Of a DNA stretch of 64,000 nt, positions 2,689-63,908 are shown piece after piece. The notes beneath the pieces were generated by a model that did no database searches, was not told the DNA's origin, and was given only the letters and a program-made list of their open reading frames with translations. The stretch covers positions 2,401-66,400 of the forward strand of contig JASNZL010000007.1 of assembly GCA_048499675.1 (NCBI GenBank), given 5' to 3'. Position 1 is the stretch's first letter; the number at the start of each line of letters is the position of its first letter. The DNA comes from Candidatus Zambryskiibacteriota bacterium (GTDB lineage Bacteria; Patescibacteriota; Minisyncoccia; Phycocordibacterales; WO2-35-19). The translations under genes and the position numbers were made by a program.

Positions 2689-3912
2689 TTAAAAATTAAT
2701 AAAGACTTCTTTCATTTGTTCAGCTATCAAATCCCAATTGTATTTTTGTTTTACCATATTAAAAGCATTTTCTACAACTTGGTTTCTGTTTGAATCATTC
2801 AAAACTCTATTGACAGTTTTCGCAATACTCTCTGGATTTTCTGGTTCACAAAAGTATCCAGTTTGCACTTCTATACCACTTTGCAGTGGCTTCGCGAGAT
2901 CTACGAGAAAATCTGGTATACCACCAACTGGTGTTGCAATCACAGGAATTTTACAAGCCATCGCTTCAACAAACGAAATGCCGAAACCTTCAGAAAGTGA
3001 TGGTCTTATAAAGATATCACAAGATTTCAAATATTTTGGAAGTTCATTGTGAGAAACAAATCCCAAAAAACAGATTCGAGCTTGGAGATTGGAGCTTAGA
3101 ACTTTTTGTTTTAATGCCTCCTCTAGAGACCCAGATCCCAAAATCACAAATTTAACATTGTCCGGTAAAAATTTTAAAGCATCTATCACATCTCCCACCC
3201 CATTTTTCTTCACCAACCTCGACGATGTCACAAGCGCAACATCATTTTCTTCCATTCCCATTTCCTTTCTGATTTTTTCTCGTTCTTCGTAACTCGTATT
3301 TCGTACCTCAAATTTATCCACATCTACTCCATTCGGAATTATGCTCACTTTCCCCTCATACCCAAACCTTTCCGCCCTATCTTTTAGAAACTGGCTAAGC
3401 ACTGTAAGATGATAAGTTCTTTTGAGAGCCATCTTCCAAGAAAAATTGATGAGACCAAACCAACGTTTGGCAAAATGTTCTTCTGAATCACCTTCTTGGA
3501 GGTTTAAAATTATTGGTACTTTATGTTTAGAAAAAATATTTGCAATATAAGCCCCCCCAGAAGCAAAGGTCGCCATAATGCACCAATAAAAATCATAATG
3601 ATTTATATTATTTAATTTTAGTGTTTTTAATGCGCCCCAAAAAGGGAGCAATATTTTATCCAAAGTTTTGAAACCAGATCCAACTCTATAAACAGAAACA
3701 TTCCCTATTTTTTCAAATTTTGGGAGTTTCCTATCAAATCGCGCTGTAATCATATCAAACTGTAGATCTGAAATCCTGTCTGTTATTTCTTTGACCGCCA
3801 CCTCTGCCCCACCCACAAATGGGTAATATGCCGTTGAAAATATGAGTATTTTTTTTGATTGTTCCACAGCATTAAGCATATCAAAAACACTCCCCCTTAT
3901 CCAATTATCCAA
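2689..3912 (-). CDS. Glycosyltransferase family 4 (GT1 superfamily)
   Basis: C-terminal EGFGISFVEAMACKIPVIATPVGGIPD motif, which is the EX7E/GT4 signature. Confidence 0.8.
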   Translation of the reverse strand: MDNWIRGSVFDMLNAVEQSKKILIFSTAYYPFVGGAEVAVKEITDRISDLQFDMITARFDRKLPKFEKIGNVSVYRVGSGFKTLDKILLPFWGALKTLKLNNINHYDFYWCIMATFASGGAYIANIFSKHKVPIILNLQEGDSEEHFAKRWFGLINFSWKMALKRTYHLTVLSQFLKDRAERFGYEGKVSIIPNGVDVDKFEVRNTSYEEREKIRKEMGMEENDVALVTSSRLVKKNGVGDVIDALKFLPDNVKFVILGSGSLEEALKQKVLSSNLQARICFLGFVSHNELPKYLKSCDIFIRPSLSEGFGISFVEAMACKIPVIATPVGGIPDFLVDLAKPLQSGIEVQTGYFCEPENPESIAKTVNRVLNDSNRNQVVENAFNMVKQKYNWDLIAEQMKEVFINF

Positions 3913-56416: not shown

Positions 56417-59400
56417 TTATTTTATTTTAATTTTGAATTTATAATTTCCAATTTTTATTTCTTCTCCATCCACGGCACCCAAACTAAATTCGATAATATT
56501 TGTGGGTTTTGAAATAGTAGAAAAATTTGATTCAAAAAACTTTTTTCCTTCTTCACTTGTTTCAATAATAAGTTCTATTTTGTCATTTGGTACTAAACCT
56601 TTTTCTTTTCTTAATTCCTGAATACTTCTTATAAACTCTCTCGCATTCCCCTCTTCTTCCAATTCCTTTGTTATTTCCGTATCCAACCAAACTTCTTCCT
56701 CCATGTTTCCATCAAAAGCCACTTCCTTAACATTTACCTCCTCTTTAATTAGGTTTGTGTGTTCTTCCTTATTTTTTAATTTTGAATTTTTAATTTTTAA
56801 TTTATTTAACGGTTGTCTCACTTTTATTCCTGCGCTATTTCTTTTTTCCATCGCTAGCGAGACTATTTTTCTCACTTCTTCCATTTTTTGATTTAATTCT
56901 TCATCCGCTACAACATTCTCAAGCGTAGACCACTCTTCCAAATGAACACTTTCTTTTTTGTCTCCAAAATTCAAATCTTTATAAATTGTTTCTGCAAGAA
57001 AAGGCATAAACGGCGCAAGAATTTTTGAAAGTTCTATCAAAACAAAAAGTGTGGTTTCTCTTGCTTTCTTTTGATCTTCAAAATCTTCTGATTTAAACCT
57101 ATCTCTTGATCTTCTCAAATACCAAGTTGAAAGGTCTTCCACAAACCCTCTTATTGGCCGACCCGCTTTGACGGTATCGTATTTTTCTAAATTGAGAGTC
57201 ACTTCAGTGTGCAATTCTTTTAGTCTTGAAAGGATCCATCTGTCCAAAACATTATCCGAGTTTGTATTTGGTTTTATGTTGCTCTCGTATGTTTTATAAA
57301 AAGCTACAACGTTTAGTAAAATATTTATAAGTCTTTGGTAGACTTCCTTTACATCGTCATCCCTAAAATTTAAATCTTCTGCCTGCATAACAACGGATGT
57401 CATAAGGTAGTATCGCAAGGCGTCAGCTCCATATCTATCAATTATCACAAGAGGGTCTGTATAATTGCCTTTGGACTTGCTCATTTTCTCACCATCGCTT
57501 GCAAGAATTGTTCCTGTCGTCACGACATTTTTGAATGGTTCATGGCCAAAAATTCCAACCGCAAGCGCATGCATATAATAAAACCACGTCCTTGTCTGGG
57601 CAATATACTCAGCAACAAAATCTCCGGGGCTTCTTTTTTCAAACTCCTCTTTATTTTGAAATGGATAATTGTATTCAGCAAAAGGCATTGAGCCAGACTC
57701 TACCCAACAGTCAATAACTTCGGGAATTCTTGTGAGTTTGCTTCCATCCTCATCTACAAGCTCTATTTCATCAATGTACGGTCTATGTAAATCAATCTCG
57801 TAGTTTTTGTTATGTGGAAGCGGGACAAAGTTTAGTTCTCCAAATTCTGCTGTTTTAAATCTGTATTGTTTTTTTTCTTTTATTTCTTTTCTTTGTTCTT
57901 TGTCTAAAACGTAAGCAGAACCAAAGAGAGCATTTATTGTGCCCTGATGACTAACTATTAAAATATTTTTACCTTTATATTTATTCTCTAAATCGTATAT
58001 AAAATCTCCGACTCGTATATGGAGACTATCGAGAGACTCTACACCTTCTATATTTTTTTCATACTTTTCTCTTTCTGTTTTGAAGTTGCTATCAAACTCT
58101 TTCCAAGTTTTGCCTTCATAATTTTTACCAATTTGGTATTCAGTTATTCTCTCATCTACCAAAATATTTTCTTGATTCAGACCAAAATGCTTAGCTATAA
58201 TTTCTCCAGTTTCTACACATCTTGTTAAAGGCGAAGTAATGATTAAATCTATTTTTTTGTTTTTTATATCAGATGCAACTACCGAAACTTCTCTTTGGCC
58301 CTCCTCCGTTAAATGAAAAACATTATTGGGATCTGCGTTTACGAAGTCTTTTAGATTAGCTTCTGACTCTCCATGTCGCATTACAAAATATTTGTTTCCA
58401 GATTTCTTGACATATTTTTTTAATTCTTCTACTCCGCTTATAACTTTTACTTCTCCTTTATCATTCTTCCATATAGGTAAAGGTGAGGCCCAAAATCTAT
58501 TTCGGCTAATTGTCCAATCTGGCGCTTTTTCTACTATATCTCTAAATCTTCCATTTTTTAAGTGAGCCGGAACCCAGTTTATATTTTCGTTTTTGGAAAG
58601 CATTTCGCTTTTTATTTTTTGAATATCTATAAACCAACTCGAGAGCGCGTTGTAAATAAGTGGAGTGGAACATCTGTAACAATGTGGGTAAGAGTGAGTG
58701 TTTGGTTTTTTATCAAACAAAAGACTTCTTTTCTCCAAATCTTCTATGACCATTTTTTCTGCTTTTTTGATGTAGACACCTTTTACGAATTCCGGAGCAT
58801 TGTCGTTGTAGTGACCATTTGAAAGAAGGAGCGGGACCATTGGCAAATCTGCTTTGAGACCTAACTGGTAGTCGTCTTCTCCATAAATTACAGCGGTGTG
58901 CACAATGCCTGTCCCCTCTTCCGTATTTACAAAATCAGCTGACAAAACATACCACGCTTTTTTGCCTGTATTTTTTACTGCATCCAAATGATAAAGTGGC
59001 TCGTATTCTAAACCAGCCAAATCTTTGCCTTTTATTTCTTTTTTTATTTCATATTCTTGCCCACCGAAAATACTTTCTACTCTATCTTTTGCCAATATGT
59101 AATTTTCTTTAGTGCTTAGTGCTTCGCTTTTTTTAACTTCGACTATTACATAATCAATATCGTCCCCCACCGCCAAAGCAACATTCGCTGGAAGTGTCCA
59201 TGGGGTTGTCGTCCAAGCCAACAGATAGCTATTTTTAAATTTTTCATTTTTAATTTTAAATTTTATAGTGACCGCTTCTTCTGTGACATCCTTGTATGAA
59301 TTATCCATAGCAATCTCTGCTTTTGAGAGAGGAGTCTCACATCTTGGACAATAGAGCAAAACTTTCCTGCCCTCGTAGAGCATTCCTTTTTTTTGGATAT

Positions 59401-59881
59401 GGGAAATCGCCCACCAAACACTCTCGGTATAGCTTGTATCCATCGTCTTGTAGGAATTATCAAAATCTACAAAACGAGCAAGTCTATCTATATATTTTTT
59501 CCAATCGTTAACATAGGTCAAAACTTGAGACCTACATTCTTCGTTGAACTTTGCAATCCCCATCTCCTCTATATCTTTTTTGTGTTTGAGTCCGAGTTTT
59601 TTCTCTACTATGTTTTCTACTGGAAGTCCGTGACAATCCCAACCCCACCTTCTGCGAACATTGTAGCCCTGCATAGTTTTGAAACGCGGGAAAAGATCTT
59701 TGGCGGTTGAACCGAGTAAATGTCCGTAGTGAGGTAATCCTGTTGCAAAAGGGGGTCCATCATAAAAAACAAACTCCCCTTTAGGTGAAGGTTTCTCTAA
59801 TGTTTTTTCAAAAATTTTATTTTCCTGCCAAAATTTTAAAATTTCTTCTTCTTGCTGTGCAATTTTACTTTTTTCTGTCAT
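56417..59881 (-). CDS. ileS: Isoleucyl-tRNA synthetase carrying an inserted histidine-phosphatase (PGAM-like) domain
   Basis: HYGH and KMSKS class I motifs, CP1 editing domain and anticodon-binding domain. Residues ~497-690 form a complete RHGE…SHQG histidine-phosphatase domain (FVMRHGESEANL … LIVSHQGTINAL). It is inserted between …WTISRNRFWASPLPIW and …DCWVESGS. Confidence 0.85.
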   Translation of the reverse strand: MTEKSKIAQQEEEILKFWQENKIFEKTLEKPSPKGEFVFYDGPPFATGLPHYGHLLGSTAKDLFPRFKTMQGYNVRRRWGWDCHGLPVENIVEKKLGLKHKKDIEEMGIAKFNEECRSQVLTYVNDWKKYIDRLARFVDFDNSYKTMDTSYTESVWWAISHIQKKGMLYEGRKVLLYCPRCETPLSKAEIAMDNSYKDVTEEAVTIKFKIKNEKFKNSYLLAWTTTPWTLPANVALAVGDDIDYVIVEVKKSEALSTKENYILAKDRVESIFGGQEYEIKKEIKGKDLAGLEYEPLYHLDAVKNTGKKAWYVLSADFVNTEEGTGIVHTAVIYGEDDYQLGLKADLPMVPLLLSNGHYNDNAPEFVKGVYIKKAEKMVIEDLEKRSLLFDKKPNTHSYPHCYRCSTPLIYNALSSWFIDIQKIKSEMLSKNENINWVPAHLKNGRFRDIVEKAPDWTISRNRFWASPLPIWKNDKGEVKVISGVEELKKYVKKSGNKYFVMRHGESEANLKDFVNADPNNVFHLTEEGQREVSVVASDIKNKKIDLIITSPLTRCVETGEIIAKHFGLNQENILVDERITEYQIGKNYEGKTWKEFDSNFKTEREKYEKNIEGVESLDSLHIRVGDFIYDLENKYKGKNILIVSHQGTINALFGSAYVLDKEQRKEIKEKKQYRFKTAEFGELNFVPLPHNKNYEIDLHRPYIDEIELVDEDGSKLTRIPEVIDCWVESGSMPFAEYNYPFQNKEEFEKRSPGDFVAEYIAQTRTWFYYMHALAVGIFGHEPFKNVVTTGTILASDGEKMSKSKGNYTDPLVIIDRYGADALRYYLMTSVVMQAEDLNFRDDDVKEVYQRLINILLNVVAFYKTYESNIKPNTNSDNVLDRWILSRLKELHTEVTLNLEKYDTVKAGRPIRGFVEDLSTWYLRRSRDRFKSEDFEDQKKARETTLFVLIELSKILAPFMPFLAETIYKDLNFGDKKESVHLEEWSTLENVVADEELNQKMEEVRKIVSLAMEKRNSAGIKVRQPLNKLKIKNSKLKNKEEHTNLIKEEVNVKEVAFDGNMEEEVWLDTEITKELEEEGNAREFIRSIQELRKEKGLVPNDKIELIIETSEEGKKFFESNFSTISKPTNIIEFSLGAVDGEEIKIGNYKFKIKIK

Positions 59882-59955: not shown

Positions 59956-60060
59956 AAAAAATATTTCACCACAAATGGTTGACTTTCAACTTAGTTTGTG
60001 TATACTAATCATACAAAGTGCCGAAAGGCTCCGAGAAGCCCCGCGAGAGCGGGGTTTCGA

Positions 60061-60453
60061 CTATCTGATAAAATTTCTCAATTTTTCTCTCATTTTTACA
60101 AAAATATCTGGAGCGATTTCATATAATTTTCTTTTCAATCTTTTTACACTCACAAGCTTCATTTGAGCCAAAATAACAGAAACTTTTTGATTATTTGGGT
60201 CTGTAAAATTGAAGTAAAAATCAAATTTCTTTTGTTTAGTAGAAAGTGGAACACACCAAAACATATGATTGTTAAATTTCTTAATAACAAGGACTGGTCT
60301 TGAAAAATTATCACCGCTTCCATTTTGCTCATACCCAATATTTTTACCAATTGAAGACATCCAAACTTCCGCTTCTTTCGGAAAATAATTAGGAGAACCA
60401 TTTTCAAACTGTATTTTCTTTTTAAGTTCGTTCCATGAGTCGTATTCGTTCAT
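60061..60453 (-). CDS. PemK/MazF-family toxin (mRNA interferase-like); no adjacent antitoxin
   Basis: …EAEVWMSSIGKNIGYEQNGSGDNFSRPVLVIKKF…CVPLSTKQ… matches the PemK/Kid pattern GEIW…G.EQ.G.RPVLIV…VPVTS. Bracketed by the ~75-bp direct repeats. Confidence 0.6.
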   Translation of the reverse strand: MNEYDSWNELKKKIQFENGSPNYFPKEAEVWMSSIGKNIGYEQNGSGDNFSRPVLVIKKFNNHMFWCVPLSTKQKKFDFYFNFTDPNNQKVSVILAQMKLVSVKRLKRKLYEIAPDIFVKMREKLRNFIR

Positions 60454-60527
60454 TCCTCAATATTAGCCGATTTCTCTCACTTTTTCAAAAGATTTTGTAT
60501 TTTGTTTTCTATCTCTTGTTTAATCGC
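60451..60527. repeat. Direct repeat copy 2 (overlaps the last 17 codons of the RT gene and supplies GAGGAA-ATG of the MazF-like gene)
   Basis: See copy 1. Confidence 0.85.
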
Positions 60528-61484
60528 AAACTGATTTCCATGTTTCAATAATCCACAATATGAAGTGAGCACATTTACATTTTCACTCTCTTTTAATGCC
60601 TTAGTTACTCTTCTTTTAGTACTTGTCCTTAAAACTCTATGATTAGGAAAATGAACCCAACCCAAAAAATCAAGTCCAGAATAAATTGTCTTTATAAACA
60701 CTTTATCCGGATGAAATTCTAGCTTTAATTTTTTTTGAAGAAAATTGGAAATTTTTGGCATAAGGTTTAACAGAATATTTTTATCACTATCAAAAATAAC
60801 AAAATCATCAGCGTATCTAATATAATATTTAATTTTTAGTTTATGTTTTACAAACTGATCAAATTTATTCATATAAACATTGACCAAAAGTTGGGAAGTT
60901 AGATTACCCAAAGGGAGACCTGTATTTGGTTTACCAATTGTATTAAAACTTTCAATTACTCTCTCCAATAACCAAACTATGTCTTTGTCTTGTATATATT
61001 CATTTAAAATATTAATCAAAATCTCGTGATTTATTGAAGCAAAAAACTTTTTTATATCGCACTTCAATATATAACATTGTTTTGTATTATTTTTTGATAC
61101 TTTTGTACCAAAAAATCTAAATCTATTTATAGCCCTATGTGTTCCTTTGTTTAATCTGCACGAATAAGAATCATATATAAAAAGTTGGTCAAAATATGGG
61201 TATAAAACTCTATGTATGGCGTGGTGCAAAAGACGATCCCTTACACTTGCCTTGTGTATGTTTCTTGGTTTTGGGTCACTTATATTAAACGCTTTGTATC
61301 CATCATGTTTGTATGTTTTGTTTTTGAGAGCATGGTGTAAATCAATAATGTTTCCTGATAAATTTAGAGCAAACTCCGCGACATCTTTTTTATCTTTTTT
61401 ACCTTTTATGAATTCCTGCCATGATTCAAAAAGATTTTTAATTGATATAATATTTTCATAATCAATTTTAATTAAATTTTTCAT
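60477..61484 (-). CDS. Diversity-generating retroelement (DGR) reverse transcriptase
   Basis: Start MKNLIKIDYENIISIKNLFESWQEFIKGKKDKKDVAEF (DGR-RT N-terminus). Motifs SVRDRLLHHA, CDIKKFFASINHEIL, the DGR hallmark GLPLGNLTSQ (SQ in place of the SP of group II RTs), and YIRYADDFVIF. No maturase or endonuclease domain. The track ORF is extended artefactually to 61535 through the 5'-UTR hairpin and G11. Confidence 0.85.
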   Translation of the reverse strand: MKNLIKIDYENIISIKNLFESWQEFIKGKKDKKDVAEFALNLSGNIIDLHHALKNKTYKHDGYKAFNISDPKPRNIHKASVRDRLLHHAIHRVLYPYFDQLFIYDSYSCRLNKGTHRAINRFRFFGTKVSKNNTKQCYILKCDIKKFFASINHEILINILNEYIQDKDIVWLLERVIESFNTIGKPNTGLPLGNLTSQLLVNVYMNKFDQFVKHKLKIKYYIRYADDFVIFDSDKNILLNLMPKISNFLQKKLKLEFHPDKVFIKTIYSGLDFLGWVHFPNHRVLRTSTKRRVTKALKESENVNVLTSYCGLLKHGNQFAIKQEIENKIQNLLKK

Positions 61485-61869
61485 ATGAATACCAATTCTA
61501 CCCCCCCCCCGAGGATTACCACAAGTAATCCTCAAAGAAAAAGAAACGTATATTCTTTGGCAAAGATTACATAAAAATTTTCCAAAAGTTGAACGATTTG
61601 GTTTAGGACAAAAGATCGAAAATTTGTTTCTTTCTATTTTGGAATTAACTTTTTCTTCCGCCTATTTATCCCTCGAACCTAAAATATTGATGCTTGGCAA
61701 GACTATATCTCGACTTGATGTCCTTAAATTTTTTATTCAGATTGCTTGGGAGAATAAACTAATTTCAACAGAACAACACATTGCACTTTCAAACAACTTA
61801 GAGGAAATTGGCCGACAACTCGGTGGTTGGAAAAAAGGTTTAAAAACAAAACTCCCACCTAAAAAATGA
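61485..61869 (+). CDS. avd: DGR accessory variability determinant (Avd-like four-helix-bundle protein); N-terminus disrupted or phase-shifted by a C11 homopolymer
   Basis: The frame beginning at TTG 61558 gives …VYSLQRLHKNFPKVERFGLGQKIENL…LISTEQHIALSNNLEEIGRQLGGWKK, matching the Avd/TIGR02436 pattern. An ATG at 61485, head-to-head with the RT start codon (CATATG), would join this frame if the C-tract were 10 or 13 nt long. Confidence 0.55.
61501..61534. promoter_or_regulatory. C11/G11 homopolymer plus a 9-bp-stem hairpin (GAGGATTAC-CACAA-GTAATCCTC) in the 5' region shared by divergent avd and RT
   Basis: Direct sequence observation. This is the only long homopolymer in the window. Confidence 0.7.
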
Positions 61870-61885
61870 TGGGAGAAATGACTAG

Positions 61886-62005
61886 TTTCGGGACGACAAT
61901 CCGATGACGGTTGTCGCCATTCCACACATTGTCGTTCGAGAAGTGGTTGACGTTAGCGTTCGGCTTACCATCACTGTTCAGATTCACGTTAGCAACGAAG
62001 AATTT
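61886..62005 (-). repeat. DGR template repeat (TR)
   Basis: ~120 nt matching the VR at 62317-62436 with 20 mismatches. Every mismatch is at a position that is A in the TR (minus strand). The TR reading frame is rich in AAC/AAT codons (…NVNLNSDGKPNANVNHFSNDNVWNGDNRHRIVV). Confidence 0.85.
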
Positions 62006-62240
62006 GTGCAATAAATCTTCCATTACACCACTTATCAAATCATGATGAGTTGAATATTATCCGGGACATAAAAGTCCGCCAATTTAGCGCACCAACTAAT
62101 TATTTTTTATTTATAAGAATATACCCACTCTTTTGTAAGACTTATCCGACAAAATTCTCAAACATATTTTTATACAACTATGGCACCAAAGCCATGACCA
62201 TGGCACTTTGCATATATTGCAAATTTAGTATAACAAAAAT

Positions 62241-62278
62241 CCCTCAGACCCGCCCACAATTAGGAAAGGGTCTGAGGG
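62241..62278 (-). terminator. GC-rich hairpin 24 nt downstream of the VR/target stop (DGR-type cruciform and/or terminator)
   Basis: CCCTCAGACCC-N16-GGGTCTGAGGG followed by a T-run on the minus strand. Confidence 0.55.
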
Positions 62279-62301
62279 ATTAAGAATTAGAGGGTTAAGA
62301 G

Positions 62302-62931
62302 CTAAGCTACGAGGGTCTGCGGGACGACAAACCGATGACGGTAGTCGCCAAGCCACACAACGTCGCCCGAGAAGTGGTTGACGCAAGCGTCCGGCCCACC
62401 AGCACCGTACAGATGCACGAAAGCAACGAAGAATTCATCGCCCACCTTGAACAAAAAGAAGGTGGCGTATCCGTCAGTGCGGAGCCACTTCTTGTGGTTT
62501 TCCACAAAAGCAACGATTTGCTCCTGGGTCAGACAAAGATCGTCCCGTTCGCGACCAAGACTGCCGAAGATAGTTTTAAAATCGCCATCCTTGACCATCT
62601 CGTAGACCTCAACGGGAGTTTCCGGCTTTGCCTCCCCTGGGACATCCAAACCCCAGTTTTTGAACTCGGAGTCAATGCCCAAAGTGAACACATCACCGGC
62701 GGAAGAGACCATCCTTTGGCCGGTCGTGGCACGGATCGCGATTCGCTTTCCGCCGGAGATGAGGCGGAGAATTGGTTCTACCTCGACCTTCACCCAGCAG
62801 GGTTCCTTGCGGAGGAACTTTTTGAACTCTGCAATCCACTTGGTCCCGTCGGGACCAGACAGCTTCTCAAAAAAATCTGTGATTGCTCCGGCCACTTCAG
62901 CCAGAGTGTTTGTGCCGAGTACGCTTGACAT
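62302..62931 (-). CDS. DGR variable (target) protein, small and cytoplasmic, with the VR in its last ~40 codons
   Basis: 209 aa with no signal peptide. The VR is at 62317-62436 (…FFVAFVHLYGAGGPDACVNHFSGDVVWLGDYRHRFVVPQTLVA). The CDS is ~53% GC, against ~30% for the RT and avd. Confidence 0.75.
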   Translation of the reverse strand: MSSVLGTNTLAEVAGAITDFFEKLSGPDGTKWIAEFKKFLRKEPCWVKVEVEPILRLISGGKRIAIRATTGQRMVSSAGDVFTLGIDSEFKNWGLDVPGEAKPETPVEVYEMVKDGDFKTIFGSLGRERDDLCLTQEQIVAFVENHKKWLRTDGYATFFLFKVGDEFFVAFVHLYGAGGPDACVNHFSGDVVWLGDYRHRFVVPQTLVA

Positions 62932-63032
62932 AGTCAGCTCCTTCTCCTATTTAAAGCATAGGTGCTATTTTGGCTCTATCTATAATATACACCTAAACAC
63001 CCCTGTTTGTCAAGGGGTAAAACATCTTTGTT

Positions 63033-63908
63033 TTAGAGCGTATTTAGAAATTTTTTTATCTCCTCAAACTCCTCTGGCAAAGCCGATTCTACTTTTATAT
63101 GAGTTCCGCTTGGTAATTCCAATTTTATAGAAACGGCATGAAGCATTAATCTTTGCTTTTTCTTATCGTAACTCGTATCTCGTAACTCGTGCTTCATGCC
63201 CCCATATACTTTATCTCCTACGACAGGGTGCCCTATTGATTTCAAATGGACTCTAATCTGATGAGTTCTGCCAGTTTTTGGTTTTACTTCTACATAAGCC
63301 CCCACTTCGCCAAGGCTACGCGGGGTAAATAACCCTTGAGCTAAAACCTTGTATCCTGTGACCGCTTCCCTCAACTCCCCTTTTGCTCCATACTCTGCTG
63401 ACCACTTTCTAAAATCAGAAGCGCTCCGCCCAATTGGTTTGTCTATCACCCCTTCCAATTTATCTTCATTAAATTTACCCCAAACTACAGCGTGATAAAT
63501 TTTCTCTACTTTTCTAGCTTGGAATTGCTCTTTGAGATATTGATGAGCTTCTTTGGTTTTTGCAACCAAAATAACTCCACTTGTATCTTTGTCCAGTCGG
63601 TGCACTATCCCCGGTCTTTTTATGACTTCACCATTTTGTAAAATTTGTTCTTCCCCAACATCCTTAAGTTCTGGGTAATTTTGAAGAATCCAATCAGTCA
63701 AAGTTTTTTCTTTGCTCCTACTATCGGAACCTGCCCCGCGATCTGCGTCAGCTGATTTTGCGGAACCTGCCCCGCGATCTGCGTCAGCTGATTTTGCGGG
63801 GCTTGCCCCGCGATCTGCGTTAGTAGATTTTGCGGGGTGAACCAAAAGCCCACAAGGTTTATCAAGAGCCAATATATATTCGTCTTCATACAATATTTTT
63901 ATTTCCAT
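63033..63908 (-). CDS. RluA-family pseudouridine synthase with an in-frame 3 x 36-bp GC-rich tandem repeat insertion
   Basis: VHRLDKDTSG catalytic motif and RTHQIRVH motif. The repeat at 63727-63834 encodes (AKSADADRGAGS)x3. Confidence 0.8.
   Translation of the reverse strand: MEIKILYEDEYILALDKPCGLLVHPAKSTNADRGASPAKSADADRGAGSAKSADADRGAGSDSRSKEKTLTDWILQNYPELKDVGEEQILQNGEVIKRPGIVHRLDKDTSGVILVAKTKEAHQYLKEQFQARKVEKIYHAVVWGKFNEDKLEGVIDKPIGRSASDFRKWSAEYGAKGELREAVTGYKVLAQGLFTPRSLGEVGAYVEVKPKTGRTHQIRVHLKSIGHPVVGDKVYGGMKHELRDTSYDKKKQRLMLHAVSIKLELPSGTHIKVESALPEEFEEIKKFLNTL

Follow-up and report, generated by a model that had tools for sequence, protein, structure and literature searches.

Diversity-generating retroelements (DGRs) make enormous targeted protein diversity, and the question is how cells hold such risky mutagenesis in check or time it. 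A 2024 preprint on Bacteroides DGRs states that the regulatory mechanisms controlling retrohoming 'await discovery'. The DGR studied here lies in a 64,000-nt stretch of contig JASNZL010000007.1 from a Candidatus Zambryskiibacteriota bacterium (35.5% GC; hereafter the window, whose positions are used as coordinates throughout). Its gene for the accessory factor Avd stands head to head with the gene for its reverse transcriptase (RT), and a run of ten C's close to the avd start codon leaves that codon out of frame with the body of the protein. What is this run for, and is the avd gene broken? The answer that we favor is a contingency switch, in which slippage in the run would turn Avd, and with it the diversification of a neighboring gene, on and off.

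The arrangement can be read directly. The RT gene (60477-61484, minus strand; 335 aa, starting MKNLIKIDYENI; Pfam RVT_1, 9.9e-25) begins with an ATG that is the reverse complement of 61482-61484. A plus-strand ATG at 61485-61487 abuts it, which puts the two start codons back to back in a CATATG junction (61482-61487), as the first-pass annotation of this stretch had described. The avd start codon and its five-codon leader (ATG AAT ACC AAT TCT A, 61485-61500, plus strand) are followed by the C10 homopolymer (61501-61510; G10 on the RT strand), and 61475-61600 as a whole reads AATTTTTCATATGAATACCAATTCTA-C10-GAGGATTACCACAAGTAATCCTC-AAAGAAAAAGAA.... The run is located 16 nt from each of the two start codons and occupies codons 6-9 of avd. 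The first-pass annotation had placed it correctly 16 nt into the avd side, but counted C11 and put the G-run 14 nt ahead of the RT start.

In the C10 state, the ATG frame comprises 29 codons and stops at a TAA (61572-61574). The Avd frame (61489-61869, plus strand) opens right after a TGA at 61486-61488, and the Avd body extends from the tract to the stop codon at 61867-61869. The first ATG, GTG or TTG in this frame is the TTG at 61624. Deletion of a single C (C9) or addition of two (C12) fuses the upstream ATG to Avd, giving a product of 127-128 aa. The window copy is OFF, one deletion from ON. Because one C too many had been counted, the first-pass annotation let the ATG frame stop after 14 codons, let the Avd frame open only from a TTG at 61558 (the TTG at 61557-61559 belongs to the ATG frame) and gave C10 or C13 as the fusing lengths. 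The run is far beyond chance expectation: it is the sole G/C run longer than 7 in the 64 kb, and the number of C10 or longer runs expected by composition is 0.006. CCC is the rarest proline codon in the window, accounting for 12% of its proline codons.

The frame past the run has the sequence and the predicted fold of Avd. It matches Pfam bAvd at 2e-14 (54.4 bits, above the 40-bit cut-off) and NCBIfam DivGenRetAVD at 1.1e-15 (57.8 bits, below the 80-bit cut-off). An AlphaFold2 model based on 49 homologues, with residues numbered from the frame start at 61489, is a four-helix bundle with a predicted local distance difference test score (pLDDT) of 92 and helices at residues 12-28, 33-57, 62-88 and 94-119. 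In the model, helix 1 begins at 61522, and residues 1-11, including the prolines encoded by the run, are disordered. A start at TTG 61624, the only canonical start downstream, would remove helix 1 and half of helix 2. A Foldseek comparison with Bordetella phage Avd (4DWL) and the 8UB7 ribonucleoprotein gave template modeling (TM) scores of 0.77-0.89; a profile search of the PDB by sequence found no Avd, while the fold search did.

The surrounding element is a DGR. The RT translation contains LGNLTSQ, which fits the DGR-type motif [ILV]GxxxSQ. The template repeat (TR; 61889-62004, minus strand) and the variable repeat (VR; ~62435-62320, aligned with TR ~62004-61889) differ by 25 mismatches, every one of them at a TR adenine within the repeat. 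The element is therefore a true DGR with past activity. The TR matches the 3' end of a 209-aa target gene (62302-62931, minus strand; VR at ~62320-62435), and the exact target protein is also encoded on a second contig, L161 of the Logan assemblies. About 25 nt past the stop of the target gene, a GC-rich inverted repeat of 11 bp (CCCTCAGACCC...GGGTCTGAGGG) and, behind it, a T-run occupy 62241-62278 (minus strand); they may form a terminator or correspond to the hairpin found downstream of the VR in some DGRs. The genes are ordered target-TR-(avd)-RT, and avd lies on the strand opposite to the others; this fits architecture B3. TR-(avd)-RT with an inverted avd makes up 90% of the Candidate Phyla Radiation (CPR) DGR set of Wu et al. 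(2018; PMC5758913), and the window agrees with these DGRs exactly in gene order and in the inversion of avd. The head-to-head arrangement of the window is therefore already known.

Is the run a peculiarity of this copy? When the Avd frame was used as a protein query, 239 relatives were obtained. We collected 160 related loci, 80 of them from GTDB genomes (nearly all titled Patescibacteria or CPR groups) and 80 from metagenomes, many of them from Hainich groundwater; 136 of the 160 are unique. The loci were retrieved through C-terminal motifs, so that the condition of the avd 5' end had no influence on which ones were found. Where the upstream sequence reaches far enough, nearly all of the 160 carry the RT gene head to head with avd, and the CATATG junction itself is found in 20 unique relatives. 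A C-run of at least 7 stands directly before the conserved R-x-L-P-x-V-I-x-K-E-K-E motif in 122 of the 136 unique loci, the flanks of which are otherwise very different. The lengths are C7 (4 loci), C8 (11), C9 (33), C10 (48), C11 (17), C12 (7), C14 (1) and C15 (1). C10 is the modal length overall and also in ten separate species of the clade that has the CATATG junction.

The reading frames at these loci are scattered. An upstream ATG is in frame and open through the run in 37 of the 122 (30%). Classified by the nearest open ATG, 116 loci fall into 37 ON, 46 in a state that needs the loss of one C or the gain of two (OFF1) and 33 in a state that needs the gain of one or the loss of two (OFF2); six more have no ATG at all. 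This split does not differ from a uniform one (p = 0.32). Past the run, avd stays open for 113 codons or more in all 84 out-of-frame loci, with a median of 119 that the in-frame loci share, and these loci are therefore not decaying pseudogenes. Fourteen loci lack a C-run of at least 7; 11 of them have no repeat of any kind, and 10 of these 11 are in frame (Fisher p = 1e-4 against the tract-bearing loci).

Other types of repeat occur as well. Locus L136 has (CA)10 at the same avd position (~110-130) and is out of frame, L010 has (AC)5 (~3011-3022) and is in frame, and L068 has an interrupted C5AC4. In the lineage of L014 and L112, avd has no tract and is in frame, and it is the RT open reading frame (ORF) that is split, by G11 in L014 (~2412) or G10 in L112 (~2413), just before the GLPIGN motif. 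Only two other G/C runs of at least 8 were found in 672 kb of related loci, one of them being this RT run. A search of IMG/VR found no viral relatives.

The in-frame relatives reveal where avd starts. The closest full-length relatives begin MNTNSTPPPRGLPQVILKEKE, MNTNFTPPRGLPQ... or MNTNFTPRGLPQ..., that is, with the ATG leader of the window, one to three prolines and then the Avd body. In four in-frame relatives, P0001 (MNTNSTPPPRGLPQ...), P0002, P0003 and P0007, the run is read as one to three prolines after the same ATG, and the leader from this ATG has the form MNTN[SF]TP(1-3)RGLPQ. Orthologues that start internally and lack the homopolymer, the pattern that the first-pass annotation had set against a switch, were not seen; the in-frame relatives start at the upstream ATG. 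These proteins also bear on the idea that ATG 61485 is not the avd start at all and that the gene is ON as it is, from a non-canonical ATA at 61489 or ATT at 61495. The Avd frame does open at 61489, and the in-frame ATT is kept in the C10 members of the CATATG clade. However, C6, C9 and C12 relatives, in which the AATT is out of frame, conserve it just as well, and ATG is clearly the start used by the in-frame relatives. A Shine-Dalgarno sequence is absent, and the idea leaves the OFF2 states, the (CA)n variant and the tract in the RT gene unexplained. We give it hardly any credence.

The out-of-frame C10 could also be a consensus error, the true length being C9 or C12 and avd simply intact; the first-pass annotation had already raised a homopolymer-length error. 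Long G/C homopolymers are error-prone in short reads, and C9 is just one base away. On the other hand, C10 was also obtained by a second assembler: contig L161 (SRR21762701), separately assembled, is 100% identical to window 60490-63754 over 3,265 bp, including the run. Among the 122 independent relatives, 70% are out of frame, which is far over a plausible error rate, and the recurrence of C10 as the modal length in ten separate species is hard to reconcile with error. A simple assembly error is thus very unlikely.

The length of the run differs between assemblies that are otherwise nearly identical. L011 and L099 align over 6,367 bp with 0 mismatches and one gap, which is in the run. The same holds for L078 and L139 over 4,040 bp, and for L104 and L116, from two size fractions of one Hainich well, over 3,843 bp. 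L086 and L091 have one mismatch, and C9 in one against C11 in the other. The G11/G10 run in the RT gene is the sole difference between L014 and L112 over 3,715 bp. There are 18 groups of loci with identical flanks. Judged by contig names and lengths, about 13 of them consist of independent assemblies, and 8 of these ~13 differ in tract length. The population of the window itself is represented by one other assembly, L161, which has the same length.

Combining these observations, we propose the following mechanism. Slipped-strand mispairing at replication would add or remove C's in the hypermutable avd tract. The change in C count would bring the upstream ATG into the frame of the four-helix bundle or take it out of that frame, and the tract would act as a stochastic, reversible ON/OFF switch for the diversification of the adjacent target gene. 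In the Bordetella phage DGR, it is established that Avd is needed along with RT for mutagenic retrohoming. By analogy, loss of Avd would silence the DGR of the window, and we infer that the changes in tract length occur at the DNA level and are reversible within populations. The prolines encoded by the run lie in the tail that is predicted to be disordered before helix 1, so length steps of three would be tolerated. The locus and its relatives combine a 5' coding run beyond what composition predicts, length differences between flank-identical relatives and a toggle between a full-length and a truncated product, three of the marks of a contingency locus. A homopolymer in a tolerant tail, length variation, scattered frames, intact ORFs, repeat-less relatives that are in frame and independent repeat types together make up the signature of such loci in Campylobacter and Neisseria. 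The mechanism that we consider most likely is therefore slipped-strand switching of Avd at the DNA level, which would also switch mutagenic retrohoming, with a probability of roughly 0.55. The suggestion of the first-pass annotation that avd may be switched in this way is supported by the comparison, in which the run recurs in 122 of 136 relatives at C7-C15, leaves 30% in frame and is often the sole difference between assemblies. For the broader proposal, that diversity generation is phase-variable across a large Patescibacteria (CPR) DGR clade, by poly-C in avd, occasionally by (CA)n, or by poly-G in RT, and forms a two-tier system of evolvability, we consider the odds to be about even.

Several points weigh against the switch. 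Length heterogeneity within the population of the window is presumed, and the two assemblies that agree on C10 may share reads. Homopolymers are the weakest point of Illumina consensus sequences, and some of the one-base differences between low-coverage assemblies could be errors. The Avd requirement is known from the Bordetella phage system only. The hairpin next to the run and the G-run may have roles on the RT strand. Finally, among loci with unambiguous starts (the CATATG and MxQLNF classes), 13 are ON, 21 are OFF1, which needs a +1 shift, and 3 are OFF2, which needs a -1 shift. The excess of genes that need the removal of one C could be partly rescued by +1 ribosomal slippage on CCC_C, to which stalling at poly-proline and the hairpin would contribute, and not be truly OFF. 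An equally good source of this skew would be a mutational equilibrium around C9-C10, given that the ON lengths of these genes are multiples of three.

The same counts introduce the main rival to slipped-strand switching, recoding at the level of expression. In this explanation, the C-run is a slippery sequence and the hairpin a stimulator; a +1 ribosomal shift on CCC_C, or slippage of RNA polymerase, produces Avd at a low, set level in every DNA frame, and the run serves as an attenuator that sets the Avd:RT stoichiometry and not as an ON/OFF switch. CCC-C and poly-proline stretches are prone to +1 slippage. Recoding would account for the +1-shift state being the commonest at unambiguous starts (21 of 37, against 3 of 37 for the -1 state), for C10 being the overall modal length, for the downstream ORFs being intact in all out-of-frame copies, and for the stable, covariation-supported hairpin right after the run in the clade of the window. 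However, a programmed ribosomal frameshift site is expected to have a conserved frame offset, and the homologues have no fixed one (37/46/33); 30-35% of them need no shift. The length of the run varies between otherwise identical sequences, which a length-tuned site should not tolerate, and the hairpin is absent from ~60% of the tract-bearing loci. In addition, rC:dG hybrids are the least slippage-prone for RNA polymerase. Recoding is possible but in our view doubtful as the primary mechanism, and it can be compatible with DNA-level switching, as leakiness.

The hairpin itself is perfect, with a 9-bp stem and a 5-nt loop (GAGGATTAC CACAA GTAATCCTC). The first-pass annotation had recognized it beside the tract and put it one nucleotide too far along, at 61512-61534; it occupies 61511-61533, directly 3' of C10, and encodes RGLPQVIL. 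Its folding energy is -13 kcal/mol (z = -5.2). Among 115 tract-bearing unique loci, it is present in ~40, a sub-clade in which the post-tract codons start with GAG. Within this sub-clade, 90% of the cells are paired, compared with 82.5% in shuffles and 28-57% in slid controls. Both sides have changed in 4 of the 9 pairs (GGATTA/TAATCC, GAATTA/TAATTC, GAAGCA/TGCTTC and GATTGC/GCAATC), in some cases at the cost of an amino-acid change, such as V to A. Shuffles give a covariation score of 0.146, whereas the sub-clade has 0.27, a value reached by none of 500 shuffles. The comparison clearly points to selection on the hairpin within the GAG sub-clade. The hairpin is an accessory, clade-specific element, and the tract is the family-wide feature.

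Two further roles for the hairpin were considered. It was rejected as an intrinsic terminator, as it is followed by an A-rich stretch on the plus strand and by the G-run on the minus strand, with no U-run. It was also set aside as a DGR target-recognition signal, in which a GC-rich initiation of mutagenic homing (IMH) sequence is followed by a hairpin: nothing beside the run is homologous to the TR, and with respect to the VR strand the arrangement has the opposite orientation. When 60000-63200 was scanned against Rfam, the sole hits were sub-threshold RsmY noise elsewhere. Two related avd copies (L082 and L084) are located on one 108-kb Hainich contig (ERZ1292625.181); the copy of L082/L003 stands beside an RT fragment only (residues 269-326), yet keeps a C9/C10 run and the hairpin.

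A different possibility is that the run acts on the RT strand, with G10 serving as a promoter spacer for RT or as part of a 5' RNA structure of the RT/DGR transcript, and the effect on the avd frame being a by-product or a coupled output. A speculative -10-like hexamer, TAGAAT (61495-61500, minus strand), lies directly 3' of the G-run and, with TTGTGG (61519-61524), would form a promoter with an 18-nt spacer, or 17 nt at G9. Such a hexamer follows the G-run directly in 37 of 114 unique loci, compared with a background of 3.3% per position, and in the clade of the window the RT ATG comes 10 nt after it. But the hexamer occurs in only a few clades, where common descent may account for it, the -35 candidate matches 3 of 6 positions and is not conserved, and a promoter consensus scan found nothing at the locus. 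In the RT-strand RNA of 61485-61550, a pairing is predicted between G10 and CUUUUUCUUU, which is antisense to the conserved KEKE codons. It lengthens the hairpin to 20 bp (-23.9 kcal/mol, z = -4.9), ending 16 nt before the RT AUG. Wobbles in imperfect stems, 5 G:U and 3 A:C, favor neither strand.

Neither the RT start nor the avd start has a Shine-Dalgarno sequence, an absence that we count toward a role on the RT strand. The G-run itself was rejected as the Shine-Dalgarno sequence of RT; it is separated from the ATG by 16 nt in the window and by 4-111 nt in relatives. The distance to the RT start (median 20 nt) also argues against an RT-strand role in general, as the run is fixed relative to the Avd codons. 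In the L014/L112 lineage, moreover, the run is inside the RT ORF and not in a promoter. An RT-strand role as the reason for the run is therefore improbable. It remains plausible that each of the two promoters lies inside the other gene, as the first-pass annotation had assumed from the abutting starts. For RT, a separate promoter is also suggested by a terminator-like hairpin with a T-run (61852-61875, minus strand), which stands directly after the TR on the RT/TR strand and overlaps the 3' end and stop codon of avd. If this terminator is functional, the TR RNA ends there, and RT would need its own promoter inside avd. The TR RNA could thus stop short of the antisense-avd stretch; alternatively, the hairpin may belong to the DGR RNA structure.

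Slipped-strand switching of this kind has well-known counterparts. The polyG/polyC contingency genes of Campylobacter jejuni, Neisseria and Haemophilus also have a G/C run of ~8-12 nt near the 5' end of the ORF in an AT-rich genome, with lengths centered on 9-10. As in the window family, the length varies among close relatives, a one-base change switches the frame, and the tract is located where extra residues are tolerated. Those genes encode surface structures or restriction-modification systems, whereas the window gene encodes an accessory factor of a retroelement that hypermutates another gene. Their variation is found among strains of one species, whereas the tract described here is conserved across a gene family that spans many orders; and the host of the window is an uncultured Patescibacterium, in which switching is proposed on the basis of sequence comparison. 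The proposed switch also resembles phasevarions, in which a repeat in one gene, a mod methyltransferase gene, toggles a downstream system in a hierarchical and stochastic manner. Phasevarions affect a methylation-dependent regulon, whereas the avd switch would set the targeted mutation rate of one target gene. In promoter-spacer phase variation (Bordetella fim poly-C, Neisseria porA/opc poly-G and Haemophilus influenzae hifA/hifB), a homopolymer can alter the spacing of -35 and -10 elements, and like the run in the window it may stand between divergent genes. The window run differs in being inside the avd coding sequence, where promoter elements are weakly supported and not conserved across clades.

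Compared with the DGR of Bordetella phage BPP-1 (PDB 4DWL, 8UB7), the window shares the RT, the four-helix bundle of Avd and a TR/VR pair with adenine-specific differences. The Avd identity is ~15%. In the window, avd stands in inverted orientation between the TR and RT, with the C-run and the hairpin in it. In BPP-1, avd is on the same strand, upstream of the TR, and to our knowledge no homopolymer has been reported in it. Poly-G/C phase variation, DGRs and the B3 architecture are each already known; the new part is the proposed contingency switch on a hypermutation machine, conserved in a large CPR clade. We found no mention of homopolymers, frameshifted avd or phase variation in the searchable full-text DGR literature, including PMC5758913, a scope that does not extend to the principal report on CPR DGRs (Paul et al., 2017, Nat Microbiol).

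If the switch is real, it would be the first mechanism proposed for the regulation of DGR activity in uncultured ultra-small bacteria. With a simple heritable switch, most cells would retain one receptor or ligand-binding variant unchanged, and a minority would re-enter diversification. The tract also has a practical consequence. In consensus assemblies, ~70% of these avd genes are out of frame, and gene callers therefore overlook them or call them too short. The avd of the window, for instance, is called as a 59-aa fragment on L161 (1886-2065), and relatives P0006, P0010 and P0012 are called from a TTG inside the hairpin, their proteins beginning LPQ.... Such gene calls could distort surveys in which DGRs are rated 'Avd-less' or incomplete, and Avd may be under-counted or mis-sized.

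Three features of the neighborhood are worth recording. Directly downstream of the DGR RT and on the same strand is a gene for a PemK/MazF-like toxin (60061-60453, minus strand; Pfam 2.6e-08). The isoleucyl-tRNA synthetase encoded at 56417-59881 (minus strand; 1154 aa) has a His_Phos_1 domain inserted at residues 499-663 (E = 3e-29), within the class I core. On the other side of the DGR, a gene for an RluA-type pseudouridine synthase (63033-63908, minus strand) contains a 36-nt tandem repeat at 63725-63835 (3.1 copies, 92% matches), which encodes in-frame SAKSADADRGAG-like repeats.

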